Of a stretch of DNA of 64,000 nucleotides, positions 50 through 51,925 are shown piece by piece. A program made the position numbers and the translations under genes. A model generated the notes under the pieces. That model saw only the letters and a list, made by a program, of their open reading frames with translations. It was not told the DNA's origin and did not search any database. Origin of the DNA: a virus; IMG/VR virus record IMGVR_UViG_3300044539_000240; one strand, written 5' to 3'. The first letter of the stretch is position 1. Every line of letters begins with the position of its first letter.

Positions 50-193
50 AAGTAATGATAATGTTGAAGTGCCGTCTCGCTCCAATACTTAACTGCCTTC
101 CCAAGTTTTACGGTGCACCGGCAGATGGCTTAAATTTCCTTGACCCAAGAAAGGTGTCGACTCCTTTTCTCTTGGAGAAACTCATTATCATTG

Positions 194-274
194 TGGGCAG
201 TAGTGGACTCGAACCACTCCCGAAAGGACCAGATTTACAGTCTGGCTGCCGTATCCGAACGACTTTTACTACCC
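194..274 (-). tRNA. tRNA-Tyr (anticodon GTA), bacterial type with long variable arm
   Basis: Acceptor GGGTAGT/ACTGCCC; anticodon stem CCAGA/TCTGG with loop CTGTAAA; variable arm TCCTTTCGGGA; T-arm AGTGG-TTCGAGT-CCACT; discriminator A. No encoded CCA. Confidence 0.7.
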
Positions 275-330
275 AATTTTTTGTATTGCTCAAATTTAAG
301 ACATTTTACTGCTCAAATTTTAGATTTTTG

Positions 331-401
331 TACCTCGAGAGGGAATTGAACCCCCACCATTTGTATGTAAGACAAATACGCTCCCGTTACGCCATCGAGG
401 C
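331..401 (-). tRNA. tRNA-Val (anticodon TAC)
   Basis: Acceptor GCCTCGA/TCGAGGT; D-stem GCGT/GCGT with wobbles; anticodon stem TTTGT/ACAAA, loop CTTACAT; T-arm GGGGG-TTCAATT-CCCTC; discriminator A. Confidence 0.75.
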
Positions 402-578
402 AAAATGTATGTTTCTGAACTTCCCACTTATAAACATACAAACTAAGTGCATCCGTACCGAGAAATGGTATCGAGCCATTCTAGAAATAGATATGAGCCA
501 TCTCCGGTCACCTGACCCCTCGGCATTTTGGTGGACATAGATTCATCATCTATTCTTGGGTTTCCACCGAACCCGTTG

Positions 579-650
579 AGGTGATAGTAGGAATCGAACC
601 CACCTAGCTGAGTTTGCAATCCAGCGCCTAAACCACTCGACCATATCACC
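579..650 (-). tRNA. tRNA-Cys (anticodon GCA) candidate; D-stem and anticodon stem imperfect
   Basis: Perfect acceptor GGTGATA/TATCACC; T-arm GTGGG-TTCGATT-CCTAC; anticodon loop TTGCAAA closed by a 4 bp stem plus an A-C mismatch; D-arm irregular. Confidence 0.5.
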
Positions 651-657
651 ATTTTTG

Positions 658-729
658 TTACCCCTGAGAGAATCGAACTCCCCCCGCATGGACCAAAACC
701 ATGTGTACTAACCGATATACGAAGGGGCA
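658..729 (-). tRNA. tRNA-Gln (anticodon TTG)
   Basis: Acceptor TGCCCCT/AGGGGTA; D-stem GTAT/GTAC; anticodon stem CATGG/CCATG, loop TTTTGGT; T-arm GGGAG-TTCGATT-CTCTC. Confidence 0.75.
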
Positions 730-735
730 AAATTG

Positions 736-819
736 AGGAAGACATGGGAATCGAACCCACAACGGTGTTACCCGCTACTTGTTTTCAAGACAAGCTCCTC
801 GTCCATTCGGCCGCCTTCC
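736..819 (-). tRNA. tRNA-Ser (anticodon TGA), type II with long variable arm; D-arm irregular
   Basis: Acceptor GGAAGGC/GTCTTCC; anticodon stem CTTGT/ACAAG, loop CTTGAAA; variable arm AGCGG..CCGTT hairpin; T-arm GTGGG-TTCGATT-CCCAT. Confidence 0.55.
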
Positions 820-905
820 ATTTTGTTTACCAATATTTCAAATAACATATCCTTTATTTTGACGGGACAAAGGTAATCCTTTTTTTCTTACTTCCTAATT
901 TTTAA

Positions 906-941
906 CCAAAAAAAAATCCTGAACTTTTTGAGTTCAGGATT
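906..941 (-). terminator. Intrinsic terminator between gene 1175..1885 and the tRNA array
   Basis: Perfect 11 bp stem aatcctgaact/agttcaggatt (915-925/931-941) with 5 nt loop. On the minus strand it is followed by a run of 9 U (plus A-run 908-916). Confidence 0.7.
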
Positions 942-1174
942 CTTATTATATGTTATGATTATTTTTTATTCAAAAATAATATCACTTAATAAATCAACTG
1001 AACTTGTATGCGAGATACGCGGATACGAACAATTACTAAATTGTTGTTTCCAAATTGAGACGTTCATATGTTTATTAGTGTTTTTCATTTTTCTTTTTTT
1101 TGTGGTATTTTTACCTGTGTTCTTAATAACTATTACAAACTTACGAAAAGTTTATCAAAAGTCAAATATTTTTT

Positions 1175-1885
1175 TTAAAAATCTATTTCAAATAAAGTAT
1201 CCTTTTCATTTTCCTCTATATTCTCAGTGTGATATAAAGTGATAGTACCATCAGTAAAGTTAAATATAAAATATCCTTCACCACCTTCATTATTTTCCCA
1301 ACCACTATAATTACTTGATAGTTGATTATAACAGAAATCTTCCATAGAACCTGGTAATTGTTGATTAATCTCATCAAAACCTCCATCCAAAGAACCATCA
1401 TCACCACCACCACTATAACGAGCGGTTAAAATCCCATCACTTGGAATTTCAGCTCCGTTAGATTCTAATTGGTCCATCCATTCAACCATCAATTCTTTTT
1501 CATCTTCAAATTCAAGTTCACCTTCACCACCCGCAGCGTAATAACCATAAATGTTACTTACCGTTATTGATTTACCTGCAGCGTCAATATCAATTAAAAA
1601 ATCATGATAATTTAAACCATCAATATCAGGAAATGAATAACGACCTGACTCATCGATATAGTTAAAAATCTTTTGTAAAATTTCTATAAAACCTGATGGT
1701 ATTTCCAAACTACTATTCCAATCAAAATGGGTCACATCTTCCCACTCAATATCAGATATTTCAGTTTTACCATCCCATTCATTAGCTTCGATTCTAATCT
1801 CTACTTGTTTTTCTCCCATGGATTGGATATATCGGGCAACCCTCTCCAAATATTTTTTCTCTTCCGGTGTTAATATTTCATTCAT
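1175..1885 (-). CDS. hypothetical acidic protein (236 aa)
   Basis: Long ORF with uniform composition, terminator hairpin immediately downstream. No recognisable domain. Confidence 0.6.
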   Translation of the reverse strand: MNEILTPEEKKYLERVARYIQSMGEKQVEIRIEANEWDGKTEISDIEWEDVTHFDWNSSLEIPSGFIEILQKIFNYIDESGRYSFPDIDGLNYHDFLIDIDAAGKSITVSNIYGYYAAGGEGELEFEDEKELMVEWMDQLESNGAEIPSDGILTARYSGGGDDGSLDGGFDEINQQLPGSMEDFCYNQLSSNYSGWENNEGGEGYFIFNFTDGTITLYHTENIEENEKDTLFEIDF

Positions 1886-1896
1886 ACTAATAAATA

Positions 1897-2244
1897 TCAG
1901 TCTTCTATTTTAAGTGTCTTTAACATCCATAATGGACGATTTTTTTCCCTAATATTATCAACCCATTCTTTTGCGGTTGGAATGTAATTATTACAATCCT
2001 CCCTAACGTGTTGTTCTCCAATATATCGGGTATAAACTATTTTACCATCACTATTTACGAATTCCGTACCGAATCTTTTTTCCATTTCAAAGATTCCTTC
2101 TGAGTGATGTCTCCACATTCTATGTAATGAATCCCCATACCATGATTTGGTTTCATCTAACCATTCATGTAAGTGGATATAATCTTCTGGCTTACCTCCG
2201 TATTTTTTTACGGAGGATTTTGCATGTAAATTAGGGTGTGCCAT
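1897..2244 (-). CDS. hypothetical protein (115 aa), His/Trp-rich
   Basis: ORF whose start overlaps the stop of the upstream GH73 gene (translational coupling). Confidence 0.55.
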   Translation of the reverse strand: MAHPNLHAKSSVKKYGGKPEDYIHLHEWLDETKSWYGDSLHRMWRHHSEGIFEMEKRFGTEFVNSDGKIVYTRYIGEQHVREDCNNYIPTAKEWVDNIREKNRPLWMLKTLKIED

Positions 2245-2705
2245 TAATTTAAAATTTCTTGATGTTCACTAATCACTCTCTTCAATGAGGTGATATATCT
2301 TTTGTCTGAGGCATAAACTCTACCTAATAGAGCGAAGTACTGACTTCTTGTTAAATTACCTTTGTTTTTTAAGGTAAATTCTTGCCATAATAGGTAATCC
2401 TCAATACTACTGTCCCAATCGTTGTACAGTGCGTATTCCTTTTTCCCCTTATTGATAGCTGTTGTTTCCCGTTTCTTTGGAGCTCTCATACCAAACAAAT
2501 TATTTTGATTGATAAAAAGAGGGGATTTAAAGTGTCCTGACTCTAACACCGCTTGGGCGAAAACTATGTCAGGAAATTTGATGTTCTTTTGGTTTATCTG
2601 TTCGTATAATAACACATGGGTTAATGATACGGACTCTGTCTCTTTTCTTGTTGTAAATGACATTAGCACCAACAACAAAGCGAATAAAATTGTTTTTAAT
2701 TTCAT
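2244..2705 (-). CDS. secreted peptidoglycan hydrolase, GH73-type N-acetylglucosaminidase (FlgJ/glucosaminidase domain)
   Basis: N-terminal signal peptide MKLKTILFALLLVLMSF; catalytic-Glu motif FAQAVLESGHF (cf. AQAxLESGWG) followed by NNLFGM and YASD (cf. YATD). Confidence 0.65.
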   Translation of the reverse strand: MKLKTILFALLLVLMSFTTRKETESVSLTHVLLYEQINQKNIKFPDIVFAQAVLESGHFKSPLFINQNNLFGMRAPKKRETTAINKGKKEYALYNDWDSSIEDYLLWQEFTLKNKGNLTRSQYFALLGRVYASDKRYITSLKRVISEHQEILN

Positions 2706-2885
2706 ACTCTCTTTTTTACAGTTTATGAGTCCGGAATACTCCTCGCTCGTGACTTTAACAAGTGGATTTTGAAAAAGCCAATACGATAATTTAATACCAT
2801 CGTATTGTTTGGTTACACTTAAATTTACGATAAAATTACCATAAATTCAAGACACCTCTATTCTATAAGTACCTCAAAAAACGTC

Positions 2886-3140
2886 TTAAAACCTATTTGC
2901 AATGTTTTTGATAATCATTTCCTCCTCGTTAGATAAGAATAATCGGGACTTCATTAACTTACCAATTGTCTTCGCCCACTCCTCATCTAATAGGTTGTGG
3001 TGAATAGGAGATGTGACTGGTTCTCCGTCTAAATGTCCCTCCTCAAGAAGGATATCAACTAATTCTTTAATTTCTCGACTCGAGCAATTTTCAATAAATT
3101 CTCCCGGTCCGATGTCAACATATGTACTAAAATCTGGCAT
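2886..3140 (-). CDS. hypothetical protein (84 aa)
   Basis: ORF diverging from the 3395 gene across a 250 nt AT-rich intergenic region. Confidence 0.45.
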   Translation of the reverse strand: MPDFSTYVDIGPGEFIENCSSREIKELVDILLEEGHLDGEPVTSPIHHNLLDEEWAKTIGKLMKSRLFLSNEEEMIIKNIANRF

Positions 3141-3394
3141 AATAATTTAATTTAATTTTGACAAAAATATAAAATAAAATTGACACTCCAAACTTTTTTG
3201 AAGATATTTATTAGTATGATTATGACCAATTAATAATTGGGGCTTTTGGAAATCATACAGATGTGAGAATGATGGTGTTGTAAGGCTCGGAAAAACCTTA
3301 AACCATAAACAATCAAATAACAAATTAATATTAAAGGGGTTCTTACCCCTTTTTTTATTGAAAAAATTTACTAAATTTATAAAAAACTTATTAT

Positions 3395-3749: not shown

Positions 3750-5414
3750 ATGAGAGTATTAGGATTTTCGGTAGGACACGATAAAGGTGCGGTTATCATA
3801 GAAAATGGAAAAGTTGTGGTGGGTATCACCCAAGAAAGATTATCTAGGATAAAACACGATGGTGCATATCAAGGGGGATTAATTCCTTTTGAATCCATAA
3901 ACTATTGTTTAAATTATTTGAGTATTACTCATAGGGATATAGACTTATTTGTTTATAGTACCACTGAAATAACCGATGATGTTGATTTTCAGTTTTTTAA
4001 CAAATATCATGATTTAAAGAGGGAAAAACTTAAATTTTTACCTCACCATTTGGCACACGCATACTCAACATTTTTTAGTTCAGGTTTTGAAGAATCTGCA
4101 ATAATCGTTGCGGACGCATCCGGAAGTATTTTAAGTTATAAAAACAAATTACACGAATGGTATGATGTTGATAGAACTGATTTAGACCCCGAAGAAGATT
4201 GGACCGAAGGAATTTCATTATTTCATTTTACAAAAAACGGATATAATGAAGTTTATAAAAAATGGATAAAATATCCTGTACCTATTGACACCAATGAAGG
4301 TGTTTCCGTTGGAACTGTTTATTCAACAGGTTCTTTACAATTAATTTATGAACCAAATGAACACACTTGGCCCGCAGGTAAATTAATGGGATTGGCGTCA
4401 TACGCTGATAAATCAATTGTGGATGAGGCACCTGAATACGCTCAAGAATTAGAGAATGATATATTCATACCAAATAATACAATTTACCCAAAAGTAACTT
4501 GGCAATCCGATTTTTTCTCAAGAGCGTGTGTTGCCGGAATTTACCAAAAAGAACAAGAAAGGTCTTCTTTAATTTTAGCTAAAATTGCAAAAAACTTAAC
4601 AAAATCTTCAAATGTTTGTGTTGCCGGTGGGTCATTCTTAAATTGTAATTCAAATGAGGTTATATTAAAATCAGGATTATACGAAAATTCTTATTTCTTG
4701 GCGCCAAGTGATGATAGTGGAATACCGTTAGGATGTGCTTGGTATGCGTATCAACAATTGATAGATATTACATCAGTTGAACCTATGTCACCTTATTTTG
4801 GTAAAACATATTCAAAACAAGAAATCATAACGGCAATTAATAACTACCCTGGATTAAATGTAGTTGAACACACTAAAGAAAGTGATTTAATTAAAGAAGT
4901 TACACATTGGTTAACCCAAAATAGAGTTATTGGATGGTTCCAAGGTGGTTCAGAAATTGGACCGAGAGCATTAGGTAATCGTTCAATATTGGCATCCCCA
5001 ATTCAAAAATGGATGTCAGGTCATATTAATGGAGATATCAAACATAGAGAATGGTATCGTCCGTTTGCCCCGGCAGTTTTATTTGAACATCAATCTGAAG
5101 TCTTTGAATCAGATGTTTATTCACCTCATATGTTGGTGACCACATCAGTTAAAGAAGAATGGAGAGAGAAAATACCTGCAGTTACTCACATTGATTATTC
5201 TGCTAGACATCAATCCGTAACCAAAGAAAATAACCCAAAATTTTATTCACTAATCAATTCGTTTTATGATGAAACCGGTGTTCCTGTTTTACTTAACACA
5301 AGTTTTAATGGTCCACACGAACCAATTGTTGAAACTCCTGAAGAAGCAATTAAAACATTTATTTCAAACAAACTTGACATATTAGTAATCGATAATTTTA
5401 TTATAAGTAGATAA
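3750..5414 (+). CDS. carbamoyltransferase, NodU/CmcH/TobZ family (copy 1)
   Basis: N-domain motifs GITQERLSRIKHDG and HHLAHAYSTFFSSGF..AIIVADASG (Kae1/HypF-like fold); C-domain GWFQGGSEIGPRALGNRSILASP (carbamoyltransferase C signature). Confidence 0.8.
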   Translation: MRVLGFSVGHDKGAVIIENGKVVVGITQERLSRIKHDGAYQGGLIPFESINYCLNYLSITHRDIDLFVYSTTEITDDVDFQFFNKYHDLKREKLKFLPHHLAHAYSTFFSSGFEESAIIVADASGSILSYKNKLHEWYDVDRTDLDPEEDWTEGISLFHFTKNGYNEVYKKWIKYPVPIDTNEGVSVGTVYSTGSLQLIYEPNEHTWPAGKLMGLASYADKSIVDEAPEYAQELENDIFIPNNTIYPKVTWQSDFFSRACVAGIYQKEQERSSLILAKIAKNLTKSSNVCVAGGSFLNCNSNEVILKSGLYENSYFLAPSDDSGIPLGCAWYAYQQLIDITSVEPMSPYFGKTYSKQEIITAINNYPGLNVVEHTKESDLIKEVTHWLTQNRVIGWFQGGSEIGPRALGNRSILASPIQKWMSGHINGDIKHREWYRPFAPAVLFEHQSEVFESDVYSPHMLVTTSVKEEWREKIPAVTHIDYSARHQSVTKENNPKFYSLINSFYDETGVPVLLNTSFNGPHEPIVETPEEAIKTFISNKLDILVIDNFIISR

Positions 5415-5417
5415 TTT

Positions 5418-7007
5418 ATGAGTTCAATTTATGGATTCTTTACCGGGTCGCATAGTCCATCTATTGCATTAATTAGAGACGGTAAAATAACATTTTGTAT
5501 CGAGGAAGAGAGATTAACCCGAATAAAATCCGGTGATAATTACGATATTAATTGTGAATTATCATGTATTGAGGCGGAAAAATATACAGGTCTAAAAATA
5601 ACAGATGCCGATTACCGAATCTTTGCAAATCCAACACCGGACGAATTTGCCCGTAAAATTACCAACAATAATTATGAAAAAGTTAGTCACCATACCGCAC
5701 ACGCATATGGGGCTTACTACACCAGTGGAATGAAAGGTAAATCAATTACCATCACATACGATGGTGGAGGTGAAAGTACCGTAATGAAAGTTTATCTATG
5801 TAATAATGGAAAAATGACTTTAATCCAAAGTCATCCATTGGCTTCATTTGGTAGTCTTTCTCACGTTTGGGGATTCAGTACATCCTCGATGAGAGGATAT
5901 GACGAACATGGTGAGGGAATATGGAAAATGTGTAAAGATGAAGGTAAATTAATGGGTATGGGTCCAAATGGTCATTACGATGAGACAATTTATAATATGT
6001 TGTCCACTGTAATTAATTATAAGGATTTTAGATTTTACCCATCCGGGTCATCAAGTAAAACCATGTTTTTAGGTGACATGATGAAATCCAATGGATATTT
6101 CGATACTCAAGAAAAAATGGAAATCTATTCATTTAATTTACAAAAACGAACAGAAGACCTATTCCTAAAATTTATTGACGACTTACATAATTTATATCCT
6201 GAATATAAGCAATTATGCTTATCCGGAGGACTATTTGCCAATGTAAAATTAAATCAAAAACTCAACGAATTAGAATGGATTGACGAAATTTATATTTACC
6301 CACCAATGGGTGATGAAGGTTTGTCATTAGGAGCCTGTATCTATAAAGCTGTCGAATTGGGTGAGATTACTGAACCAATTGAACTAACTAATGTTTATTT
6401 TGGGAAGTCATACAATAATGATGAAATACAGGAAATCTCAAAAGATTATAGTTTTAAGAGAGAACCATATAATCCGAAAGATATCGCAAATTATATCAAT
6501 CAAGGAGGAATCGTTGGATGGTTTCAAAATGGTTCCGAATTCGGTCCAAGGTCTTTAGGAGCTCGAAGTATTTTAGTTAGACCAACCGAAATCTCAACAC
6601 ACAAATTATTAAATAAAAGATTAAATCGATATGATACAATGCCATTTGCACCAATTATATTAGAAGAATCATTTGACAATATTTTTATACCATCAAAATC
6701 AAAATACACATCTGAGTTTATGACATTATGTTACAACACAAAAGATGAGTGGATTGATAAGATACCTGCAGTTATACAAAAGTCAGATAAAACTGCTCGA
6801 CCCCAAATAGTTAAAAGGTCTAAAACACCTAAATTTTGGGAAATATTAAATGAATATTATATGTTATCAGGAATACCATTATTATTGAATACATCATTTA
6901 ATTCACACAATCAACCAATCATTGAAAACCCGGAACAAGCATTTGAGTCATTAAAACTTGGGGTCATTGATAAATTAATAATAGAAGATTATGTTTATTT
7001 CCCTTAA
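5418..7007 (+). CDS. carbamoyltransferase, NodU/CmcH family (copy 2, divergent paralog of 3750..5414)
   Basis: Same motifs: EEERLTRIKSGD, HHTAHAYGAYYTSG, GWFQNGSEFGPRSLGARSILVRP, LLNTSFN. Starts 4 nt after copy 1. Confidence 0.8.
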   Translation: MSSIYGFFTGSHSPSIALIRDGKITFCIEEERLTRIKSGDNYDINCELSCIEAEKYTGLKITDADYRIFANPTPDEFARKITNNNYEKVSHHTAHAYGAYYTSGMKGKSITITYDGGGESTVMKVYLCNNGKMTLIQSHPLASFGSLSHVWGFSTSSMRGYDEHGEGIWKMCKDEGKLMGMGPNGHYDETIYNMLSTVINYKDFRFYPSGSSSKTMFLGDMMKSNGYFDTQEKMEIYSFNLQKRTEDLFLKFIDDLHNLYPEYKQLCLSGGLFANVKLNQKLNELEWIDEIYIYPPMGDEGLSLGACIYKAVELGEITEPIELTNVYFGKSYNNDEIQEISKDYSFKREPYNPKDIANYINQGGIVGWFQNGSEFGPRSLGARSILVRPTEISTHKLLNKRLNRYDTMPFAPIILEESFDNIFIPSKSKYTSEFMTLCYNTKDEWIDKIPAVIQKSDKTARPQIVKRSKTPKFWEILNEYYMLSGIPLLLNTSFNSHNQPIIENPEQAFESLKLGVIDKLIIEDYVYFP

Positions 7008-7655: not shown

Positions 7656-8402
7656 ATGATGAACGTAGGACAAGAATTTCAAAGTTATTACACAAAACAT
7701 TTAGGTAAACCATCTTTGGATTTACACAACTTCAACAACCACATTCAAAATTCAATGACTCCTTACATTTTGGAGGAAAGAGAAATGAGAGTAACCCAAA
7801 TGGATATTTTCTCTCGTTTAATGATGGATAGAATATTATGGGCTTCAGGTCCGGTTGACGACAGAATGGGTGATATCATCCAATCACAACTTATTTTCTT
7901 AGACAACTTAGATAAGAAAAAAGATATTAATTTATATCTACAAACTCCGGGTGGAAGTGTTTTAAGTGGATTAGGTATTAGAGACACGATGAACTTTATT
8001 AACGCGGATGTTGCGACCACTAATATTGGTATGTGTGCATCTATGGGTTCAGTATTATTATCTTCAGGGACAAAAGGTAAGAGGTCATCTTTAATTTTCT
8101 CAAAAGTAATGACTCACATGGTTTCTCACGGAACACAAGGTAATGTTCAAGACACAAGAATTAATCAACTTGAGGCCGAAAAATACAATTATTTGTTATT
8201 TAAAATATTGGCGGAGAATTGTGGTAAGACATTTGAAGAAATGTTAGAATCATCAAGAAATGATAAATGGTTCAATTCTGATGAAGCGTTACAATTTGGT
8301 CTAATTGATAAAATTGTTGGTGTGGAGAAAAATCAATCAATGTCAGATATGATGGTTGGATTTGACGATTATTATGAAAAAGAAATTCTTAAAAGAAAAT
8401 AA
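7656..8402 (+). CDS. ClpP-family serine protease (S14), possible prohead/maturation protease
   Basis: Aligns to ClpP: Ser in IGMCASMGSVLLSSG (cf. GQAASMGAFLL), His in KVMTHMVSHG (cf. RVMIHQP), Asp in WFNSDEALQFGLIDK (cf. SAPEAVEYGLVD). Triad complete. Confidence 0.8.
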   Translation: MMNVGQEFQSYYTKHLGKPSLDLHNFNNHIQNSMTPYILEEREMRVTQMDIFSRLMMDRILWASGPVDDRMGDIIQSQLIFLDNLDKKKDINLYLQTPGGSVLSGLGIRDTMNFINADVATTNIGMCASMGSVLLSSGTKGKRSSLIFSKVMTHMVSHGTQGNVQDTRINQLEAEKYNYLLFKILAENCGKTFEEMLESSRNDKWFNSDEALQFGLIDKIVGVEKNQSMSDMMVGFDDYYEKEILKRK

Positions 8403-8423
8403 GAATTGTTATTAAATGAAAAA

Positions 8424-8452
8424 AGAAGGTATTACTACCTTCTTTTTTTTTT
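8424..8452 (+). terminator. intrinsic terminator after the ClpP-like gene
   Basis: agaaggta-ttac-taccttct hairpin followed by T10. Confidence 0.65.
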
Positions 8453-8515: not shown

Positions 8516-9169
8516 TTATGTTGCAACTTCAGGTTTTAATTTATCATAAACACTTGAAGCTTTTTTATTAAAATTGTTGTACACTCCACAGACAGTACTT
8601 TCTAATTTGTCTTGTAATTCAATCACAACTTTAGTATCTTGAATTGCACCTAATAATGTATTTCTTAATATTGTATATCCGGTACCTTGCATCCCTTGTT
8701 GTTCTTGTACCATCATCACTAATGCCTCAACTAACGCCTCAGAAACTAACGCAGTTAGTTCGTTACAACTTTTTAAGGCTTTTGCAAGTCTCCTTGGGTC
8801 TTTAAGTATAAAAGACATTAAAGCATTTTTAAAAAATCCTGACAATCCAAGTCCTCCTAAAATTGAATTAACAATTGGTTCAACCGCAGTTTGAACAATA
8901 CCACTTAAACTATTCCCGAACATCTTACCCAAGAAATCCATTAATTGCTCATTCAAAATATTGTTTTCGTCTAAAAATCTAATTTCCTCAATTAAATTTT
9001 TAGCAATTTTCATTTTCTTACCCTCAGGTAGAAATTCAAAATTATCTATAACTTCTTTAGATTCAACTATTGCAAAAATTCTACTTTTAACTAAATTTTC
9101 TTCAATTAAAATTTTTTCTTTTTGTTCTTTAGTCTCTTTAATTACCTTTTTTATTTTTTTCTCAATCAT
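8516..9169 (-). CDS. hypothetical protein, K/E-rich coiled-coil N-term and hydrophobic C-term (217 aa)
   Basis: ORF at the end of a minus-strand run of large genes. Confidence 0.5.
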   Translation of the reverse strand: MIEKKIKKVIKETKEQKEKILIEENLVKSRIFAIVESKEVIDNFEFLPEGKKMKIAKNLIEEIRFLDENNILNEQLMDFLGKMFGNSLSGIVQTAVEPIVNSILGGLGLSGFFKNALMSFILKDPRRLAKALKSCNELTALVSEALVEALVMMVQEQQGMQGTGYTILRNTLLGAIQDTKVVIELQDKLESTVCGVYNNFNKKASSVYDKLKPEVAT

Positions 9170-9176
9170 TACTTAA

Positions 9177-10220
9177 TTAATTTAATAACCATTTAGAATT
9201 ATCACCATATGGTAATGGACCACCTGAACCTCCACGTAGAGTTTCAACATAATTATCAATTTTACTTAGTGCACCACCCCATTTACCATCAAATTCATTC
9301 ACACATGCTTGAACTTTTTCTTTCATTGGTGCAAATGTGTTTGGTTCAACTCGTTTTTTAGTTCTCCAAGCCTCATAGTAAGCTCTAATTGTATCTCTAC
9401 AGTCACTTTTACTTGTTGGAGTTTGACTCGTAACCGCTTTACTAAATTGGTCGGCGATTTTATCTCCTGATGACCCTACGACTAAATTAGGTGAAAAATA
9501 CATGATTAAATCTTGAGAGAATATACCTTCACTAGCAGGACTGACAACTTTTGAAGTCCAAGTTTTAACTTGTTCAGAATCTAATTGATTTCTTAATTTA
9601 TACCCTAAATCAGTATATTTTTTAATAAGTTTTGTTTGTTCATCGTTTAGTCCACCAGCGATTCCACTACTTGCAACACTTCTATATAGTGTAACTCCGT
9701 TAACAACTTTTTTCTCAAACATTTTTGGGTTTTCTAAGTTTTCACGAGTTGTTTGAATTTCACTCGCCTCTTTCCATCCACCTTCTGTTTTAACTAAATT
9801 AGTATCTTTAGTGTTTGCATCTTGTTGAGCCTTTAATGCCGCTTGTTGTGTTTTTATTTGTTCGGCTTTTGAACATTTCCATTTTCCTTTTTCACCTGTT
9901 GCAGGTAATAGATAAGTCATATCTGGATAAAAAATAAGAACTTGGTTAGATTTTAGAGTAGTTGTTTGATAAGCGGGTTTTTTAGTCCCTTTTATGTATT
10001 TAATTACCCCATTTTTAAAACATCCTGCCGCCTCAGAATCCTTAAGAAATTTTCTATCAATTTCATCTTGATTCACAACAACTTCCTCTTTTTTAGGTTC
10101 CTCTTTTTTAGGTTCCTCTATTTTAGGTTCTTCTGTTTGTTCTAATAACCCTTTTTTTCTCAACTTAGAATGCATTTCTAAGATTTGTTTTACTTCGTTT
10201 GAGTCTACATTAAATTTCAT
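9177..10220 (-). CDS. hypothetical protein with EEPKKEEPK repeats. Start corrected to MKFNVDSNE.
   Basis: The longest ORF overlaps the upstream gene by 119 nt. The Met at 10220 lies 7 nt after that gene's stop. Tandem 15 nt repeats at 10081-10130 encode (EEPKx)3. Confidence 0.55.
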   Translation of the reverse strand: MKFNVDSNEVKQILEMHSKLRKKGLLEQTEEPKIEEPKKEEPKKEEVVVNQDEIDRKFLKDSEAAGCFKNGVIKYIKGTKKPAYQTTTLKSNQVLIFYPDMTYLLPATGEKGKWKCSKAEQIKTQQAALKAQQDANTKDTNLVKTEGGWKEASEIQTTRENLENPKMFEKKVVNGVTLYRSVASSGIAGGLNDEQTKLIKKYTDLGYKLRNQLDSEQVKTWTSKVVSPASEGIFSQDLIMYFSPNLVVGSSGDKIADQFSKAVTSQTPTSKSDCRDTIRAYYEAWRTKKRVEPNTFAPMKEKVQACVNEFDGKWGGALSKIDNYVETLRGGSGGPLPYGDNSKWLLN

Positions 10221-10227
10221 CTTGTAA

Positions 10228-11397
10228 TTATTTATCTTGAATATTATTTGATTCTTCTGAGTCACTCTCACCATCTTCAAGTCCATAATCATCCGTCTTA
10301 GCTGGTGGTAATTTTTCTTCAGTCGGTTTATTTGCCGTTCTAACACCAGGGTGTCTTGTATCTAAAATACCGGTTGCGGTTGGATTATTCTCTAATGAAA
10401 CCCAATCTTTAATTATTTTACCTTTATTTTTCCAACTTTTAGTAAACCATTGTCCATTAACTACTTTATACTGATATGGGTCTCCAGGAAACGTATAAGC
10501 TCCATCTTCTTTTGGTTGATATTCTCCACCTCCAGTATTTCCACCTCCGGTATTTCCACCTCCGGTATTTCCATCTTCTATAGGGGCTTCTTTAGGGGTA
10601 CCTTCAGGGTTTTCGGTAAGTGTACCTTCCGCTTTCATAGTTTGAACGATAGCATATACACCAGCACCACCAATCAACAATCCTACCCCCCATTTTAACC
10701 AACGAGTAAATGGCCATTTTGATGCCCCTTGAGTTAAAACTTGTTTGTTCGCATCTGCCAAGATTGCTTTAATTTGAGTTGATGTTGCCGGTTTACCTCC
10801 AACAGTTACTTGTTGAATCAATTTTTCTCTAGTAAATTGACCTAAATTTTTAGTACCTAATCTAGCTTTTTCAGCTTGAGCTAATTTTTGATATTGGGCC
10901 TTTTCAGCGGCTGTGAGTCCTTGAGTACTACCAGCAGAACGATTTGCAATTTTATTAGCAATTTCATCAGCGACATCATCAGGGTATCCTCCTTTTTTAA
11001 ACGCTTTTGCAATATCTGATTGACTTTTACCTCGATATAAATTGATAACATCATCACTATTTGTAATTGATTTAATCAATGACGATTTATCTGAGAAACT
11101 AATTGAAGGGTTTTTCAAAAATGTGTTTGTTAATAAAGTACCACTAGCATCATCCAAAGCTGTTGTTGAACCTTTCTTTAAGATGTTTTTTAAGTCATCC
11201 GCACTTGTTACTGCAATACCTGTTTTTGTTTTTAAAGTACCTTTCTTAAAAATATCATCTAAAGCCTTACCCCCTTTACTTATCAAATTCTTCCAAACTT
11301 GTGGTTGTTCTAATAGTGGTTCTAAGTTTTCGGTTAATGTTTTCTTAACATCATAACCCATTAGTAGTTTAATTCTACTTGTTTCGTTTATATTCAT
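10228..11397 (-). CDS. hypothetical protein with N-terminal KLLMGYDVKKTLTEN propeptide-like motif, GGNTGGG repeats and one TM segment (389 aa)
   Basis: Shares its N-terminal approximately 25 aa with 12655..13170. Tandem 15 nt repeat at about 10525-10573. Possible virion internal protein. Confidence 0.55.
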   Translation of the reverse strand: MNINETSRIKLLMGYDVKKTLTENLEPLLEQPQVWKNLISKGGKALDDIFKKGTLKTKTGIAVTSADDLKNILKKGSTTALDDASGTLLTNTFLKNPSISFSDKSSLIKSITNSDDVINLYRGKSQSDIAKAFKKGGYPDDVADEIANKIANRSAGSTQGLTAAEKAQYQKLAQAEKARLGTKNLGQFTREKLIQQVTVGGKPATSTQIKAILADANKQVLTQGASKWPFTRWLKWGVGLLIGGAGVYAIVQTMKAEGTLTENPEGTPKEAPIEDGNTGGGNTGGGNTGGGEYQPKEDGAYTFPGDPYQYKVVNGQWFTKSWKNKGKIIKDWVSLENNPTATGILDTRHPGVRTANKPTEEKLPPAKTDDYGLEDGESDSEESNNIQDK

Positions 11398-11417
11398 GAT
11401 TTTTATTTATAATGTTT

Positions 11418-12665
11418 TTATTGAGGAAATTGACTTGTATCATATTTTATATTCATTGAAGCCAACTGACTTCCCATATCTAAATCGTCATTTCCGAATG
11501 AACCCGCAAATGCCCTATTATCCGCACCAAATGCGGTATTTAACCCGGCAGTTAATCCGGCAGCAGTTGCAACTTTCCCCGTTCTACTCGACAATACCTT
11601 TCCAACCGGAGCTAATTTAGTTTTTAAAGATGTACCAGTATTGGTCACCTTTTGTTTTAGATTTTTCGCAGATTTACCTACAGTTTGTTTTAAATTTCCA
11701 GACGCTTTTGCAACATCATCAATAACACCGGTTAATTTAGTTTTTAATTGACTTGAAACTTTTTCTAAAGATTTAATTCCAAGTTTTTTCCCTAACCAAC
11801 TAACCCCTTGGAGCATATACGCCCCAATTTGTGAAAGACCTGATACTATTTTTGATAGTATAGATGAAAACCATTTTACTGTTGAAGACCCTGATGTTGC
11901 CATTTTTTTAATAATCCCACTTAACGGTAATTTAGTCCCTAAAATACCTAATTGTTTAAATATTCCAGCAACAATCTTAGCGCCTGGACCTGTCGTTACA
12001 ACCCCTATTAAATCGATAATAATATTAACCCAATCCCAACTTCCATTAATCCCCTGTAATATATCCCAAGCTAACATCGCACCCCATACAACTACTAAAA
12101 TAACATTTCCAACACCTGAGGTTGAAGTTGCTAAAAAAGCTTGTACCGCGGCACCGCCCCAACTAAATAAAGCCTTTCTTAGATTTTCAAAAAACCAACC
12201 AAGACCTTTATTCACTAACCAATCAGTTCCGGCATTGACCTTATCTTTTAATTTACTAAAAAATCCTTTATCTTCTGATTGTTCGTTTATTGTTAAAAAA
12301 TTAGACAATGATTCTATAATATAATCCCAAGATGATGAAATAATGTCATTATCTTTACCTTCAGTTATTAAATTATTAGAATATTTTTGTTCAAATTCTA
12401 ATATAAATAAATCTTTAGTTTTTCCATCAAATATTTCAGAAATACCATACACAGTTTCTCTGATAATTTTTTGAATACTTAAAAAATCAGTTATTTTATT
12501 ATTATATGATTTTTGTGAATTTTCTTTTAAAAAGTTTAACCAAAAATTAATGTCGGTATTTTTAATATTAAACGATTTGTCACTAGCAATATCATATAAT
12601 GTATTTTCATACATAATGTATTGTCCGTTATGGGATAACGATAATAAATTTAAATTAAATACCAT
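11418..12665 (-). CDS. hypothetical membrane-active protein with Gly/Ala-rich glycine-zipper helices (415 aa)
   Basis: The C-terminal half contains several G/A-rich hydrophobic segments (GAAVQAFLATSTSGVGNVILVVVWGAMLAW; AGLTAGLNTAFGADN). Confidence 0.5.
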   Translation of the reverse strand: MVFNLNLLSLSHNGQYIMYENTLYDIASDKSFNIKNTDINFWLNFLKENSQKSYNNKITDFLSIQKIIRETVYGISEIFDGKTKDLFILEFEQKYSNNLITEGKDNDIISSSWDYIIESLSNFLTINEQSEDKGFFSKLKDKVNAGTDWLVNKGLGWFFENLRKALFSWGGAAVQAFLATSTSGVGNVILVVVWGAMLAWDILQGINGSWDWVNIIIDLIGVVTTGPGAKIVAGIFKQLGILGTKLPLSGIIKKMATSGSSTVKWFSSILSKIVSGLSQIGAYMLQGVSWLGKKLGIKSLEKVSSQLKTKLTGVIDDVAKASGNLKQTVGKSAKNLKQKVTNTGTSLKTKLAPVGKVLSSRTGKVATAAGLTAGLNTAFGADNRAFAGSFGNDDLDMGSQLASMNIKYDTSQFPQ

Positions 12666-13170
12666 ATTTCATTTCTTCTTTTGATTTAACTTTACAAATT
12701 TCTTGTTTTGAATTAACCGGTACTGTACACCAAGATTTAAGTTGTGATGATATTTTACCGACAATTGTTTTCATTAAATTCCCTGAAAACCACTCACCAT
12801 CAATCGCATCATATAAATTCTCACCATTAACTTCAGGATAAGTCTTAATTATTGCCATACTATTAGATATGTTATTAAATACTTTATTAATAACATAATC
12901 TATATCTCCTTGTCGTCCAATCCCCTCAATAGCCTTTAAGAATGCTGCTGCATTTTTTTTAGGGTCTCCCGTTGGATTTCCGTAATTTATTGTCATTTTC
13001 TCAGGATATTTCATATATCCTTTTACAATACTCTTAAAATATTCGTCAGGACTTGCTGTCTGCTCAAAAATAACACTTTTATTTTCATTTAATGTTTTTG
13101 ATGAATCATAACCCATCATTAACTTAACTCTATTTAACGCCTCTTCAGGACTATATTGTGGTTGTACCAT
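12655..13170 (-). CDS. hypothetical protein with N-terminal RVKLMMGYDSSKTLNEN motif (171 aa)
   Basis: N-terminus is paralogous to 10228..11397. Overlaps the next gene by 11 nt. Confidence 0.55.
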   Translation of the reverse strand: MVQPQYSPEEALNRVKLMMGYDSSKTLNENKSVIFEQTASPDEYFKSIVKGYMKYPEKMTINYGNPTGDPKKNAAAFLKAIEGIGRQGDIDYVINKVFNNISNSMAIIKTYPEVNGENLYDAIDGEWFSGNLMKTIVGKISSQLKSWCTVPVNSKQEICKVKSKEEMKYGI

Positions 13171-13204
13171 ATCTCAAGTATTTTATTTTATAAATATATC
13201 ATTA

Positions 13205-13456
13205 TTACCAAATTTGATTAGCCGCTCCTCTATTTAATCCTGTTTGCCATTTTTCCCCCGCTTTTCCCAACATATTCGCTTTACCTCGTGTTAATGTATA
13301 AAAATCTGACCATTTAGGGACTGACCCTCCACCACCTCCTGAAGATGGTGCAGATGAGGCAGGTGCAGCGTCTTGCTCACCAATTTCATCTTTCGATTCA
13401 GTTGATGGAGTGTATTTTTTGAAGAAATCAATAAGTGCGTTAATATCTGTAACCAT
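13205..13456 (-). CDS. hypothetical Gly/Ser-rich protein (83 aa)
   Basis: ORF between the head-like block and the divergent lipoprotein gene. Confidence 0.45.
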   Translation of the reverse strand: MVTDINALIDFFKKYTPSTESKDEIGEQDAAPASSAPSSGGGGGSVPKWSDFYTLTRGKANMLGKAGEKWQTGLNRGAANQIW

Positions 13457-17410: not shown

Positions 17411-18445
17411 TTAATTATATCTGCTCATTCTGTTAAACATCTCTGAGATTTTATTTTTTTGAGTTTTGAAATCTTCTTGAAGGTCGGTGTCAATTTCTTC
17501 CCACTCATCCTCAGAATCATCTCCGTCAAAATCTCCATTGTGAGTTGCAAATCCAAAATCATTTTCTTCTTCATCCTCATCCTCATTATAACTGAATCTT
17601 TGGTATGGTCCGGCACTACCAGGTCCATCACTATCAAAATCGTAAGCTGGGTCCATATCTCCGTAAATTCCTTGAGAACCTGAAACATCAACTTCCCCTA
17701 TTTCTCCTTCATTACTCAATTTGTCAATTGCATAATCAATTACGATTGGAGCTGCGATTCTTGCAACAGTTCCCCATCCTTGTTCTTTTATTTCATCATC
17801 CGCCCACGCAGATTCCATTCTCTCATATTCAACTTCTTCGTCATCATATTCATTAACCGGATAAACACCACCAGGCCCTTCTGATTCAAAATCATACGCT
17901 GGTTCAACAGAATCAGTATCCATATCATCGACATTTCCACCTTGTTCGCCAAGTTCGTCAGTCGATAATTCAATATCTTCAAAACCATCATCATCAATTA
18001 TATCATCTTCTTTATAAAGATTTTTATGCATTCCTTCAAATGTTCCGTAATCGTTTCCTCCACCTTCAACATAATCAAAATCTCCATGTGATAGGTTTAA
18101 ATCTCTTTCTTTATAGATATCGTCTAGATGTCCTGTTTCTTCTTCCATTTGTCCGTAACCACATTCCATGCATTCACCTTCGGTCATTTGACCTCCACAT
18201 TGTTCACACATAGATTTTTCTTCAACTTGTTCGTTGATTCCAAAGTTTGTATATTTCTTAACTTCACCTTTATTATTAACAACAAGTCCTTCTTTATCAC
18301 CTGCCGGGTCATATACGTATAATGGTTGGGTATTTGATACTTGAGGTTGCATTGTTTGGTAACCGTTGTATAAACTTCTGTGTTGGTCTAATATATCCGA
18401 CTTTTCCGCCGCTGACAATTGACCTATTCCATAATTTGTTCTCAT
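17411..18445 (-). CDS. highly acidic protein with a double CxxC zinc ribbon and repeated DPAYDF(D/E)S(D/E)GPG motifs (344 aa)
   Basis: CEQCGGQMTEGECMECGYGQ; repeats MDPAYDFDSDGPGSAGPY and VEPAYDFESEGPGGVYPV; long D/E tracts. Several embedded short ORFs on both strands are rejected. Confidence 0.6.
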   Translation of the reverse strand: MRTNYGIGQLSAAEKSDILDQHRSLYNGYQTMQPQVSNTQPLYVYDPAGDKEGLVVNNKGEVKKYTNFGINEQVEEKSMCEQCGGQMTEGECMECGYGQMEEETGHLDDIYKERDLNLSHGDFDYVEGGGNDYGTFEGMHKNLYKEDDIIDDDGFEDIELSTDELGEQGGNVDDMDTDSVEPAYDFESEGPGGVYPVNEYDDEEVEYERMESAWADDEIKEQGWGTVARIAAPIVIDYAIDKLSNEGEIGEVDVSGSQGIYGDMDPAYDFDSDGPGSAGPYQRFSYNEDEDEEENDFGFATHNGDFDGDDSEDEWEEIDTDLQEDFKTQKNKISEMFNRMSRYN

Positions 18446-18641
18446 AAATAAGTTTTATTATAAATACACACGATTTACCCTTTTTATGTTTGACATATCG
18501 AAAATACCTGATTATATTTAATTAAGACAAGTGAAAGGTTGATAATTCATTTGATAGTATCTTGGTAATTTACTCTTCGCCTAATATCAACCCCACTTGT
18601 TTTTTTTTTCTTCACTATTTTTTTATTCCAATTTAATTTAA

Positions 18642-29386: not shown

Positions 29387-29475
29387 GTTTTTTTTCTAAA
29401 TAAATAGTGGGTTTAGGGTGTCAAACTTTTATACGAATATTTATAGGTAATAAATTACCAAGATATTATTAAACT

Positions 29476-31359
29476 ATGAAAAAACTTTTTATGGTGCTGT
29501 CATTCCTTGTGATGACTTCACTGGGTTATTCCCAAATTTGTCCGACACCGACAACTACCGGAGTTTTTGTTACATTAGACGCAACTTATCAATTAGCACC
29601 GGCATCTGCTGGTAATACTGAAGTAGGTTTATGTTTTTTTAACAATACTACCGAATTGATTACGGCTGTTCAGTTTCGAGTGTTTTATGATACCTCAGCA
29701 TTCACATCAGTGTCTTCTGTCGTATCGTCAAATACATCGTTCCCCCAATATATTCAATTTCAGGATAGTCCTGCAAATGGATATGTTACGATTACTCTAA
29801 CTTATACAGGTAATGACTCGAATTTTGAATTATCAAATGGGTCATTTGTAAAATTAAATTTAGTACACTCAGCGAATTTTGCGAGTTTGTCGTCTGTTCA
29901 ACCCATGACATTTAGTGGTGTTCAAACATTCCCACAAACCGCAACAAAACAAAATGGTTCTGACTATACTTTAAATTTACAAAACTTTGGTGGAGCATTT
30001 TTACCTCAACTATTTTCGTTTAGTGGTACATTCACTAACGTAACAGGAACGGGGTCAAAACTAATTCCGGTTATTTTAGAGAAAAAATTAATGACATCTT
30101 CAACTTGGATTCAAGCGTCAACAACACAAACAAATAACGCTGGTGTTTTCACATTTACAGATGTACCACTAGACGTTACAAGTTATGACGTTCGTATTAG
30201 AGTAGATGGTGAATCACTATCAATAGCAAATATCATTTCAACATCTGACTCACAAAAAATCAACAGATTTGTTTTAGGTCAAGATACTCCGACAGGATTT
30301 GATTTTTATTCATCTGATGTTAATGGTGACAACAACATATCAATTTCTGATGTGTATGGTGTGTTTGGTAGAGTATCAGGAAGATTTAGTTCTTGGCCTA
30401 ACTCGGTTAAAGATGTTAAATTCTTCTCAGATTCAGAATACACTTCTATTAATGGTTCAACATCATCTTTACAATCTACAATTCCGGGTGTAACGAATCT
30501 TGTTTACAACATTTTACCGGGTACAACAACAGTTACTTTCTATGTGTTAGTTAAAGGAGATGCTAATGGTACAGGTTTTAATATGGCTCGTATGACACCA
30601 ATTGAAATTGTAAACCCGTTAAACGCACCATCAAATATTATTGATGTTACAACAACTTATGACAACCCAACATTACAAACCATCGAATTAAACTATCCAA
30701 GTTTAACGGTAAATGAAAATAGTAGAGTTGAGGTTCCTGTTCTTGTAAAAACAAATGGAATTCAATTAGGTTCTTTACAACTGGCATTAAATTACAATAG
30801 TAATCTATTAGATTTTACAGGTGTTAGAGCTGAGAATAAAGTTAGTGGATGGATAACTTATGTTAATACAAATGATAATATTGTTGAGTGGGGTGGCTAT
30901 GACCCAACAAAAAATACAAAATTATTAAATGACAACGAATTAGCTTTCACACTACAATTCACATCGAAAGAAATTCAAAGTCAATGGGGTGTAAGTCCTT
31001 TATATGTTACAAAAAAATTCTCAGGAAATTCAATCGCTCGAGATTTGAAAATAATACCTACAAATGGGATTATTCAAATCATGAGAGTTATGAAACCAAC
31101 CGATTTAGAATATATGGTGACATACCCTAATCCAACTGATAATGACATCACTGTCAAATTTACTGTAGAAAAAGAAGGTAATGTTTGGTTATCTTTATAT
31201 GATTTGGGTGGTAGAGAAATTCAAACAATCGTTAACACTGATTTACATTCAGGTGAACACAGATATAGTACAAATGTTGGTTACCTTCCTTCAGGAACTT
31301 ACATAGTTACTCTTAAAAAAGGTACGGAAATAGAATCTAATAAGATAATCCGTAAATAA
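29476..31359 (+). CDS. secreted protein with Por/T9SS C-terminal sorting domain (627 aa)
   Basis: Signal peptide; C-terminal approximately 80 aa YPNPTDNDITVKFTVEKEGNVWLSLYDLGGREIQTIVN...GTYIVTLKKGTEIESNKIIRK fits the type-A CTD pattern (TIGR04183-like); internal dockerin-like DVNGDNNISISD; TATTTATAGG box 37 nt upstream. Confidence 0.6.
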   Translation: MKKLFMVLSFLVMTSLGYSQICPTPTTTGVFVTLDATYQLAPASAGNTEVGLCFFNNTTELITAVQFRVFYDTSAFTSVSSVVSSNTSFPQYIQFQDSPANGYVTITLTYTGNDSNFELSNGSFVKLNLVHSANFASLSSVQPMTFSGVQTFPQTATKQNGSDYTLNLQNFGGAFLPQLFSFSGTFTNVTGTGSKLIPVILEKKLMTSSTWIQASTTQTNNAGVFTFTDVPLDVTSYDVRIRVDGESLSIANIISTSDSQKINRFVLGQDTPTGFDFYSSDVNGDNNISISDVYGVFGRVSGRFSSWPNSVKDVKFFSDSEYTSINGSTSSLQSTIPGVTNLVYNILPGTTTVTFYVLVKGDANGTGFNMARMTPIEIVNPLNAPSNIIDVTTTYDNPTLQTIELNYPSLTVNENSRVEVPVLVKTNGIQLGSLQLALNYNSNLLDFTGVRAENKVSGWITYVNTNDNIVEWGGYDPTKNTKLLNDNELAFTLQFTSKEIQSQWGVSPLYVTKKFSGNSIARDLKIIPTNGIIQIMRVMKPTDLEYMVTYPNPTDNDITVKFTVEKEGNVWLSLYDLGGREIQTIVNTDLHSGEHRYSTNVGYLPSGTYIVTLKKGTEIESNKIIRK

Positions 31360-36156: not shown

Positions 36157-36193
36157 AGTTAAAGTATTTATAGTAATAAAAACGTAAATTACT

Positions 36194-41326: not shown

Positions 41327-41346
41327 ATTTATAAATACCTCAATAA

Positions 41347-43813: not shown

Positions 43814-43833
43814 GTCTATAAATATATCAATAA

Positions 43834-47267: not shown

Positions 47268-47300
47268 ATCTATAAATAGTTTTATTATATAAATATAACA

Positions 47301-49131: not shown

Positions 49132-49203
49132 ATTTTATAAATACCTAAATAACCATATTTGACTTATTAATCATTATTTAATATTATTCTAAAAAAAAAA
49201 ACT

Positions 49204-51880: not shown

Positions 51881-51925
51881 TACCTATAAATAGATTTATA
51901 ATTAAAAAACCCTTGTAGTTAAGAA

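Follow-up and report, generated by a model that had tools for sequence, protein, structure and literature searches.

Internal-protein genes in T-even phages are highly diverse and share only a short N-terminal capsid-targeting sequence (CTS), which is removed at an L/I-x-E site (PMC3012670, PMC9026906). Cleavage after Glu, in [L/I]-x-E in T4 or [A/S/G]-x-E in phiKZ and SPN3US, is the hallmark of the gp21 protease family, and this specificity for phi-x-E is documented for T4 gp21, phiKZ gp175 and SPN3US gp245 (PMC5694885, PMC10052503, PMC9026906). In the SPN3US ejection protein gp47, a transmembrane (TM) segment lies right behind the propeptide (PMC5694885). Here we describe a conserved N-terminal segment, leader A, carried by two proteins of the minus-strand block 8516-13456 in a 64,000-nucleotide stretch of viral DNA (the window; IMG/VR record IMGVR_UViG_3300044539_000240). 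On balance we favour, by no wide measure, a role for leader A as a T4 CTS-like capsid-targeting propeptide that is removed by a gp21-family protease and whose cargo is ejected into the envelope. Packaging into the capsid, cleavage, the identity of the protease and ejection are what we infer from sequence, rather than what was observed.

A conserved leader on otherwise unrelated proteins

The two leader-A proteins, 10228 and 12655 (genes are named by their first coordinate; Table 1), begin with MNINETSRIKLLMGYDVKKTLTENLEPLLEQ (core segment SRIKLLMGYDVKKTLTEN) and MVQPQYSPEEALNRVKLMMGYDSSKTLNENKSVIFEQ (core segment NRVKLMMGYDSSKTLNEN), respectively. They have in common the motif R-[IV]-K-L-[LM]-M-G-Y-D-x-x-K-T-L-x-E-N within a leader of ~30-36 residues. 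The original prediction held that the two share an N-terminal segment ending in T-L-x-E-N while the remainder of each differs, and this is what we find. The ending can be read in both open reading frames (ORFs), a six-frame regular-expression scan of the window places K[LIVM][LIVM]MGY, K[TS]L.E[NQ] and the combined motif at these two sites only, and leader A sits on otherwise unrelated proteins. The further suggestion that T-L-x-E-N is an L-x-E site also stands, with the amendment that the better-conserved candidate is a second site, [IVL]-x-E-Q, 6 residues later.

Leader A is widespread among uncultured phages. When IMG/VR was searched with a degenerate DNA pattern limited to M-G-Y-D-x-x-K-T-L-x-E, 43 loci matched, and in 42 of these the match lies at the N-terminus of an ORF. 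The residues E-E-L-x-R-[IV]-K-[LN]-[LM], which lie upstream of and outside the search pattern, are also conserved in those loci, and the match is therefore not due to chance. Several synonymous codons are used at the invariant residues (GGT, GGG and GGA for Gly; ACT, ACA and ACC for Thr; TTA, TTG, CTT and CTA for Leu), which indicates that conservation acts at the level of the peptide. An exhaustive profile search of 1.84 billion representative proteins gave 675 clusters with E <= 1e-3, of which 175 had E <= 1e-10; all 675 are from uncultured phage contigs. The matching proteins range from 43 to 595 aa and, in nearly all of 150 representatives among the matches listed, the profile match starts at residue 1.

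Absent from Pfam, PHROGs, NCBIfam and PDB sequences, leader A is at the sequence level an undescribed N-terminal leader family, and it was not met in the literature searched, where the motif itself was no query. Against PDB sequences the profile gave nothing significant, the sole weak match being HPr kinase, a likeness that probably explains recurrent MGYDATKTF matches in Lactobacillales genomes. The 10228 protein and two leader peptides had no match in 50,697 GenBank phages by tblastn, and a search for related loci using 10228 alone returned no relatives. In 185,579 bacterial species genomes the leader pattern gave about 119 chance matches and a single true copy; the latter lies on a 2.8-kb contig, which is probably mis-binned phage DNA.

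The residues behind leader A point to a protease site. Of 137 members, 135 have an [I/V/L]-x-E within 20 aa behind the leader, and for 94 the distance is exactly +6 residues. The site has I, V or L at P3, a free P2 (F, N, S, K, L and others) and E at P1. Gln occupies P1' in 87 of the 137 (64%). In interior control windows of the same proteins, phi-x-E was present in 17% and phi-x-E-Q in 0.4%. The fixed P3 and P1, free P2 and fixed spacing fit a protease site. T-L-x-E is itself invariant in leader A, making T-L-x-E-N a second candidate site of the phi-x-E form. Among 25 aligned sequences of the 10228 family, L-[LFSV]-E-[QNA]-P is conserved in 21, and four have a variant leader in which the second site is absent and only ITLNE↓G is present (the arrow marks the candidate cut). 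In many leader-A members a glycine-zipper or TM segment begins directly behind ...I-N-E.

Similar sites recur beyond leader A. Within their first 40 aa, the ORFs of the window show a 4-fold enrichment of phi-x-E-Q (12 versus 13 elsewhere; Fisher p = 7e-4), and phi-x-E-S is enriched 2.8-fold N-terminally. In each of the six block proteins a phi-x-E site lies at an N-terminal domain boundary and is kept in diverged orthologues, and this boundary recurs in four unrelated leader classes and two long N-terminal regions. In an AlphaFold2 model of 12655, leader A forms a helix (8-18), an MGYDSSKT loop and a second helix (27-35), with a predicted local distance difference test score (pLDDT) of only ~60.

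We also considered other kinds of leader. A Sec, Tat or lipoprotein signal peptide was rejected: leader A is charged and amphipathic and lacks an h-region. A double-glycine (C39) leader, or one of the type found on ribosomally synthesized and post-translationally modified peptides, was rejected as well: GG is lacking, the neighbourhood encodes neither a C39 peptidase nor an ABC transporter, and the proteins are 150-600 aa long. The cargo proteins of leader A contain no signal peptides. Taken at face value, the shared segment appears to behave like an N-terminal propeptide or targeting leader ending in L/I-x-E sites, and its carriers look like otherwise unrelated, non-enzymatic proteins that would interact with membrane or wall.

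The leader-bearing cassette, its relatives and its setting

The block encodes six proteins that have no Pfam, PHROGs or NCBIfam match (Table 1). It had been described as free of enzymes and rich in repeats and glycine-zipper helices; indeed, no enzyme domain from these databases is found there, GNTGGG occurs in 10228 and EEPKK in 9177, and 8516, 10228 and 11418 contain glycine-zipper or TM segments. The true start of 9177 lies at 10220 (MKFNVDS..., 347 aa; Joint Genome Institute (JGI) gene calls), which corrects the earlier ORF start, and its leader B reads MKFNVDSNEVKQILEMHSKLRKKGLLE, with a candidate site at E27↓Q. In 8516 the [LI]-x-E site is conserved in diverged orthologues, as is L-x-[IL]-[NT]-E↓[QSN] in 11418, where it follows an N-terminal part of 128 aa. 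In 13205, the leader is followed by an A/S/P/G linker and two (W.TGL)-x-RG-x-AN repeats (W-x-T-G-L-T-R-G-x-A-N form), and [LIM]-[GD]-E with Q or D as the next residue is retained in 11 diverged orthologues out of 12, the L004 sequence being too diverged to place. The 13205 family is small, is conserved in 12 loci and has no known domain match; its mature part would be ~55 aa.

Table 1 Features of the leader-bearing cassette and related elements. Coordinates are those of the window unless a locus is named; ↓ marks a candidate cleavage position.
Feature	Coordinates	Strand	Details
ClpP, cellular type	7656..8402	+	intact Ser-His-Asp triad; Pfam CLP_protease 1.2e-50
Bidirectional hairpin terminator	8419..8452	.	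AGAAGGTA-TTAC-TACCTTCT flanked by A-run and T-run; read from sequence, not flagged by generic terminator scan
Cassette-flank protein, 217 aa	8516..9169	-	charged 74-aa N-terminal part, ILNE74↓Q, glycine-zipper hydrophobic core; 249 homologues
Leader-B protein, 347 aa	9177..10220	-	leader B ending in GLLE27↓Q, then EEPKK repeats; JGI gene call
Leader-A protein, 389 aa	10228..11397	-	leader, helical domain 31-200, TM/glycine-zipper W228-M250, GNTGGG linker, small beta domain 308-348
Leader A of 10228 (aa 1-30)	11308..11397	-	candidate sites TLTE23↓N and LLE30↓Q
Protein without leader A or B, 415 aa	11418..12665	-	INE128↓Q right before multi-glycine-zipper region
Leader-A protein, 171 aa	12655..13170	-	leader aa 1-36, then all-alpha annexin-repeat-like domain (AlphaFold2 and Foldseek)
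Leader A of 12655 (aa 1-36)	13063..13170	-	candidate sites TLNE29↓N and IFE36↓Q
Leader-A stretch			KTLNENKSVIFEQTAS; candidate cleavage region
Promoter-like box TATTTATA	13189..13196	-	18 nt upstream of 12655 start codon
Class-C leader protein, 83 aa	13205..13456	-	other cassette flank; DINALIDFFKKY...EIGE27↓Q
Second leader-B-type protein	17411..18445	-	...SAAEKSDILDQH...; own TATTTATA box; outside the block, same system
Further TATTTATA boxes	18459-18466, 29438-29445, 36165-36172, 41330-41337, 43817-43824, 47271-47278, 49136-49143, 51885-51892, 58912-58919, 61836-61843		
Leader-B-type proteins in relatives	L236 20769, L240 17501, L245 18884, L247 14837, L255 20733, L283 20583		..E-E-K-x-R-I-L-x-L-H..phi-x-E-Q

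The cargo behind leader A is diverse. In the AlphaFold2 model of 12655 (pLDDT 81), an all-alpha domain is predicted with confidence, and the helix-loop-helix of the leader with less. Each of the model's 50 highest-ranking Foldseek matches in the PDB is an annexin or contains one (alpha-giardin; PDZ constructs fused to annexin for crystallisation); the best local alignments cover one repeat (76-81 columns, rmsd 3-4 A, 22-26% identity) with weak E-values of 0.1-1. Pfam Annexin (PF00191) is borderline in relatives of 12655, at 25.5 bits against a cut-off of 25 and in 2 of 119 members, and 12655 itself has no Pfam match and a degenerate Ca-binding GxGT motif (GIGRQGD). The AlphaFold2 model of 10228 (pLDDT 64) had no fold match. 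In two of its homologues the beta domain is replaced by a 4-Cys PG_binding_1-like domain, and such a Cys-rich domain ends at least 41 of 119 leader-A family members. The conserved 4-Cys peptidoglycan-binding domains, in proteins without signal peptides, suggest action in the periplasm, which ejection could reach. Our best guess is that the leader-bearing proteins of the block would be internal or ejection proteins.

The block is also a variable cassette. In locus L171, flanks that are 94.7% nucleotide-identical to those of the window enclose a cassette (359-3375) without blastn similarity to 8516-13456: the cassette is swapped wholesale between strains. This cassette encodes proteins of 83 aa, 368 aa (leader A), 315 aa (leader B) and 218 aa, with two genes replacing four. 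Other strains differ from the window in individual cassette genes.

A link to T4-type heads comes from a relative, L174, in which homologues of the window genes 17411, 14039, 13205 and 11418 and two leader-A genes lie directly upstream of genes for the large terminase subunit (TerL) and portal. The TerL clade of L174 (60-77% identity, 111 loci) includes a gp20-like portal in 68 loci, a gp21-like protease with ELNHP and SSRG catalytic motifs in 48 and a gp23-like capsid protein in 33, and several window genes have homologues of 42-57% identity beside the head modules of this clade. In six of the loci, genes for leader-B-type proteins (Table 1) lie 9-10 kb downstream of TerL, at the distance at which the major capsid protein (MCP) gene ends in L178/L186-type loci; no leader A is present in the stretches of these six that were examined. 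The L174 portal gene (11809-13326, corresponding to L023 6284-7801) has an HNH-endonuclease-like segment at aa 125-285 relative to the L178 portal, which could be an intein or homing element.

Putative expression signals connect the same genes. The box TATTTATA, which is the reverse complement of the T4 late promoter TATAAATA, occurs 3-30 nt upstream of 12 window start codons, and this short distance would give a very short 5' untranslated region or none. The box at 13189..13196 is the probable start of a 12655-to-8516 operon, whose internal genes 10228 and 9177 have leaders and no upstream box. In the window TATTTATA precedes mostly leader-bearing genes, including 17411, together with the gene for a protein with a type IX secretion system (T9SS) C-terminal domain and an endolysin-like gene. 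In relatives it precedes the gp21-like protease gene in 33 of 41 cases and the portal gene in 29 of 52, as well as TerL genes, and the MCP gene in 0 of 28, against a background of 1.6% of random 45-mers.

A further N-terminal motif, commoner than leader A, is found on the minus strand between 40346 and 61819. It reads MK[YI][IV]I[TK]ES[QK]... or MKxIxxLTES[DE]Lxx[IV][IV]K.., stands at the very start of at least 10 ORFs (46021-46386, 48100-49131, 55380-55682, 58215-58535, 58537-58908, 40346-41326, 51020-51880, 61229-61819, 43313-43813 and 46659-47267) and resembles the T4 gp24 propeptide MAKINELLRE↓S. Its strict form accounts for 6 cases (N-terminal enrichment p = 5e-6), among which just one pair is paralogous beyond the N-terminus. 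Separately, the second leader-B-type protein, 17411, has four phi-x-E-Q motifs (aa 70, 79, 165 and 219) and could be cut into several pieces; T4 gp67 and gp68 are cut in this way.

The window itself is low-GC (~31%) phage DNA. It matches JGI metagenome contigs of freshwater type, up to 171 kb long, and GenBank phages include no near relative of it. At the left end of the window (193-819, minus strand) is a cluster of five tRNA genes (Tyr, Val, Cys, Gln, Ser), and endolysin-type genes are also present. Neighbours of the block include two tandem carbamoyltransferases, 2-oxoglutarate oxygenases, a glycosyltransferase, an RNA ligase and ThyA. The carbamoyltransferases (3750-7007, plus strand) are diverged NodU/CmcH-type proteins of 554 and 529 aa, ~26-29% identical to each other's orthologues, and are co-oriented with a 209-aa gene of unknown function and ClpP, an order kept in L020 and L028. 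The product of 29476-31359 (plus strand) combines a signal peptide with a cohesin-like domain and, at its C-terminus, a T9SS sorting domain (Por_Secre_tail). This domain suggests a host in the Bacteroidota, which is probably the host group, and the phage product would use the T9SS of the host. No gene for capsid, portal, scaffold or terminase could be recognised in the 64 kb or the ~4-9 kb that was examined on either side, and neither these regions nor the examined leader-A loci gave a homologue of T4 gp20, gp21 or gp23; for gp22 and gp24, searches of the window and the leader-A loci were likewise negative. Beyond the window, exact-protein look-ups added nothing but more small genes of unknown function.

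A targeting propeptide and its alternatives

The N-terminal position of leader A, a site with fixed P3 and P1 and free P2, the strain-variable and unrelated cargo, and the T4-type heads in the clade of a relative together favour a CTS-like propeptide. In the mechanism we propose, the conserved ~30-36 N-terminal residues (helix, MGYD loop, helix) would attach the protein, once it is made, to the core or scaffold of the prohead. After assembly of the shell, a gp21-family (S77) prohead protease would cut behind the Glu of T-L-x-E↓N, of the [I/V/L]-x-E↓Q that follows it, or of both, and free the mature cargo inside the capsid. The cargo would then be ejected with the DNA into the cell envelope, where annexin-like, glycine-zipper or TM, and Cys-rich peptidoglycan-binding proteins, none of them with a Sec signal, might act. 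The block 8516-13456 would be a strain-variable cassette with at least three leader classes (A, B, C) and two longer propeptide-like N-termini.

Several points weigh against this proposal. The lineage is uncultured, and the argument is built from sequence. At 30-36 aa, leader A is three times longer than the T4 CTS (10-20), is conserved to a far higher degree and has no sequence in common with it. No gp20, gp21 or gp23 homologue was found in the window, its examined flanks or the examined leader-A loci, and the connection to T4 heads comes through one relative, L174, and its TerL clade. About one third of the window ORFs have phi-x-E-[QS] near the N-terminus, which seems too many if all were head proteins. 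In the window the block sits among auxiliary genes rather than head genes, and the combination of a TM segment with a periplasmic peptidoglycan-binding domain would also fit inner-membrane regulators of superinfection exclusion or lysis that are not part of the virion. Finally, the two-helix AlphaFold2 model leaves room for the conserved E-N/E-Q to be structural, within a folded N-terminal domain.

The last of these points lead to an alternative that we consider unlikely, in which the leader is never cleaved and forms the cytoplasmic N-terminal domain of non-virion membrane or wall factors (superinfection exclusion, lysis control, envelope remodelling), with E-N/E-Q as a structural or binding interface. 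Many members do show a leader, a TM segment and a periplasm-type Cys-rich peptidoglycan-binding domain, in a type-II membrane topology, and the helix-loop-helix shape and the distance from head genes in the window would fit, as would the hypervariability, which is also typical of exclusion and defence gene cassettes. However, 83 of 120 leader-A members lack a long uncharged stretch behind the leader, and the free P2 with fixed P3, P1 and spacing resembles a protease site rather than a packed helix. The recurrence of the phi-x-E boundary across unrelated N-termini, and the homologous cassette abutting TerL and portal in L174, also argue against it.

If leader A is a propeptide, the enzyme that removes it must be asked after, and the original prediction named the neighbouring ClpP-type protease, acting on internal or ejection proteins in a head-maturation module downstream of it. 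The propeptide-like leader is upheld at the sequence level; the module and the role of ClpP are not, and we regard this assignment as quite improbable. The triad is intact, as had been predicted, with Ser (GMCASMG), His (MTHMV) and Asp (RNDKWF) aligning to the catalytic residues of a solved ClpP (1y7o). PHROGs places the protein in phrog_94, 'head maturation proteases' (4e-33), S14/S49 ClpP-fold prohead proteases occur in other phages, and the gene adjoins an 8516-like cassette flank in the window, L011, L020/L027/L028, L030 and L039/L041 (ClpP identity 52-62%). By score, however, this is a cellular-type ClpP: it matches NCBIfam PRK14514 with 227 bits over positions 2-217 of the 221 in the model, short of the equivalog cut-off (361), versus 60.8 bits for Clp_rel_HeadMat (NF045542), below its cut-off of 120, and it keeps the N-terminal axial region typical of ClpX/ClpA-dependent ClpP.

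The genomic context of ClpP also argues against such a role. The block is not downstream of ClpP; ClpP, on the plus strand, and the block, on the minus strand, converge on a hairpin terminator at ~8419-8452, and ClpP is the last gene of the carbamoyltransferase operon, a different transcription unit. No head genes are recognisable in the window or its examined flanks, and the neighbours of the block are auxiliary genes. ClpP is absent next to the cassette in L037, L010, L040 and L174, and no ClpP lies within 10 kb of TerL in the 111 loci anchored on related TerL genes, most of them with T4-like head genes. The closest GenBank ClpPs are from 540-640-kb megaphages, all without leader A. We know of no ClpP with specificity for Glu at P1. 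This specificity is documented for the gp21 family (PMC5694885), and Iyer et al. describe ClpP in jumbo phages as patchy and probably host-directed (PMC7824862). ClpP is thus probably not the processing protease of the cassette, and it should not be annotated as a head-maturation protease.

Two further proposals keep ClpP in a different role. Leaders A, B and C might be recognition modules of a phage-run proteolytic switch, in which the cellular-type ClpP with a host unfoldase trims or destroys the leader. We find this very doubtful; if true, membrane- and wall-active proteins would be activated at a set time of infection, by a Glu-specific processing without precedent. The leaders could instead be N-terminal degrons or adaptor tags that direct proteins to phage ClpP and host ClpX/A for timed degradation or processing. 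Cellular-type ClpP is kept beside the cassette in one sub-lineage, many window ORFs start with M-K-hydrophobic-hydrophobic-hydrophobic, and N-terminal ClpX recognition motifs exist in E. coli. Yet known degrons are much smaller than an invariant leader of 30-36 aa, the neighbourhood has no gene for an adaptor or unfoldase, the leader occurs without a nearby ClpP in many loci, and proteins with Cys-rich periplasmic-type domains would be odd substrates for a cytoplasmic protease, all of which makes degrons extremely unlikely.

That the 5' ends in common are cassettes for recombination or regulation at the DNA level, like the PeSL elements that mediate shuffling in T4-type phages (PMC2839356), rather than functional peptides, has almost no probability left despite the shuffling of cassette genes between strains and the TATTTATA box at many gene starts, since it is largely refuted by the synonymous codons at invariant residues, with 24-36 codons conserved with amino-acid-level substitutions, and since 10228 and 9177 carry leaders without a box.

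Comparison with described packaging and processing systems

Were leader A a capsid-targeting propeptide, a single sequence tag would mark the packaged and ejected proteome of a large group of uncultured T4-like freshwater phages, and at least four leader classes would serve as tags of this kind. Phages place their first-strike functions against defences and for breaching the envelope in ejected proteins, which homology searches do not easily find. The tag picks out 675 clusters with unexpected cargo (annexin-like, glycine-zipper and disulfide-type peptidoglycan-binding), and it marks a strain-variable cassette that resembles an arms-race locus. The principle of the T4 CTS would be extended to longer, modular and highly conserved tags, which could be portable packaging tags.

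Encapsulin cargo-loading peptides offer an analogy only. There too, a short terminal tag loads diverse cargo into an HK97-fold shell; in contrast to leader A, these tags are usually C-terminal, are not cleaved and have no phi-x-E site. The ClpP-fold (S14/S49) prohead proteases, of the Clp_rel_HeadMat or lambda gpC type, resemble the ClpP of the window in being phage-encoded ClpP-fold Ser proteases. The latter differs from them in being a full-length cellular-type protein that scores below the head-maturation cut-off, and in lying outside a head module, neither fused nor adjacent to a scaffold or MCP gene.

The propeptides of phiKZ, 201phi2-1 and SPN3US, cut by gp175/gp245 at S/A/G-x-E or A-x-E, are closer. 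They have multiple cleavage sites, as the leaders described here would have, identical N-termini on diverged paralogues and, in gp47, a TM helix directly behind the propeptide, and the preference for Ser at P1' (PMC5694885, PMC10052503) is matched by the N-terminal enrichment of phi-x-E-S in the window. In contrast, P3 is I/V/L here, as in T4, and not A/S/G, and the leaders are discrete, highly conserved modules found on hundreds of proteins.

The greatest likeness is to the T4 CTS, carried by IPI, IPII, IPIII and Alt and removed by gp21. Both are short N-terminal propeptides, in our case a putative one, common to otherwise unrelated proteins, and both end in L/I-x-E, after whose Glu T4 cleaves and which here is a sequence motif. 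In both, related phages carry diverse cargo genes, and these are located outside the head gene cluster (PMC9026906, PMC3012670), and homologues of gp20, gp21 and gp23 are present in the TerL clade of L174. The differences are also clear. Leader A has two tandem candidate sites and a strongly preferred Gln at P1', at least four leader classes occur in this one phage, and the cargo is predicted to bind membrane or wall, whereas that of T4 consists of small basic DNA-associated proteins. On inspection of the leader sequences, nothing beyond the phi-x-E ending resembles MKTYQEFIAE, and leader A is therefore a new family and not a homologue of the T4 CTS. The underlying principle is already known from T4 and phiKZ-like phages; what is new is the length and strong conservation of leader A, the presence of several leader classes in one phage, the membrane- and wall-binding cargo and the scale of 675 clusters.

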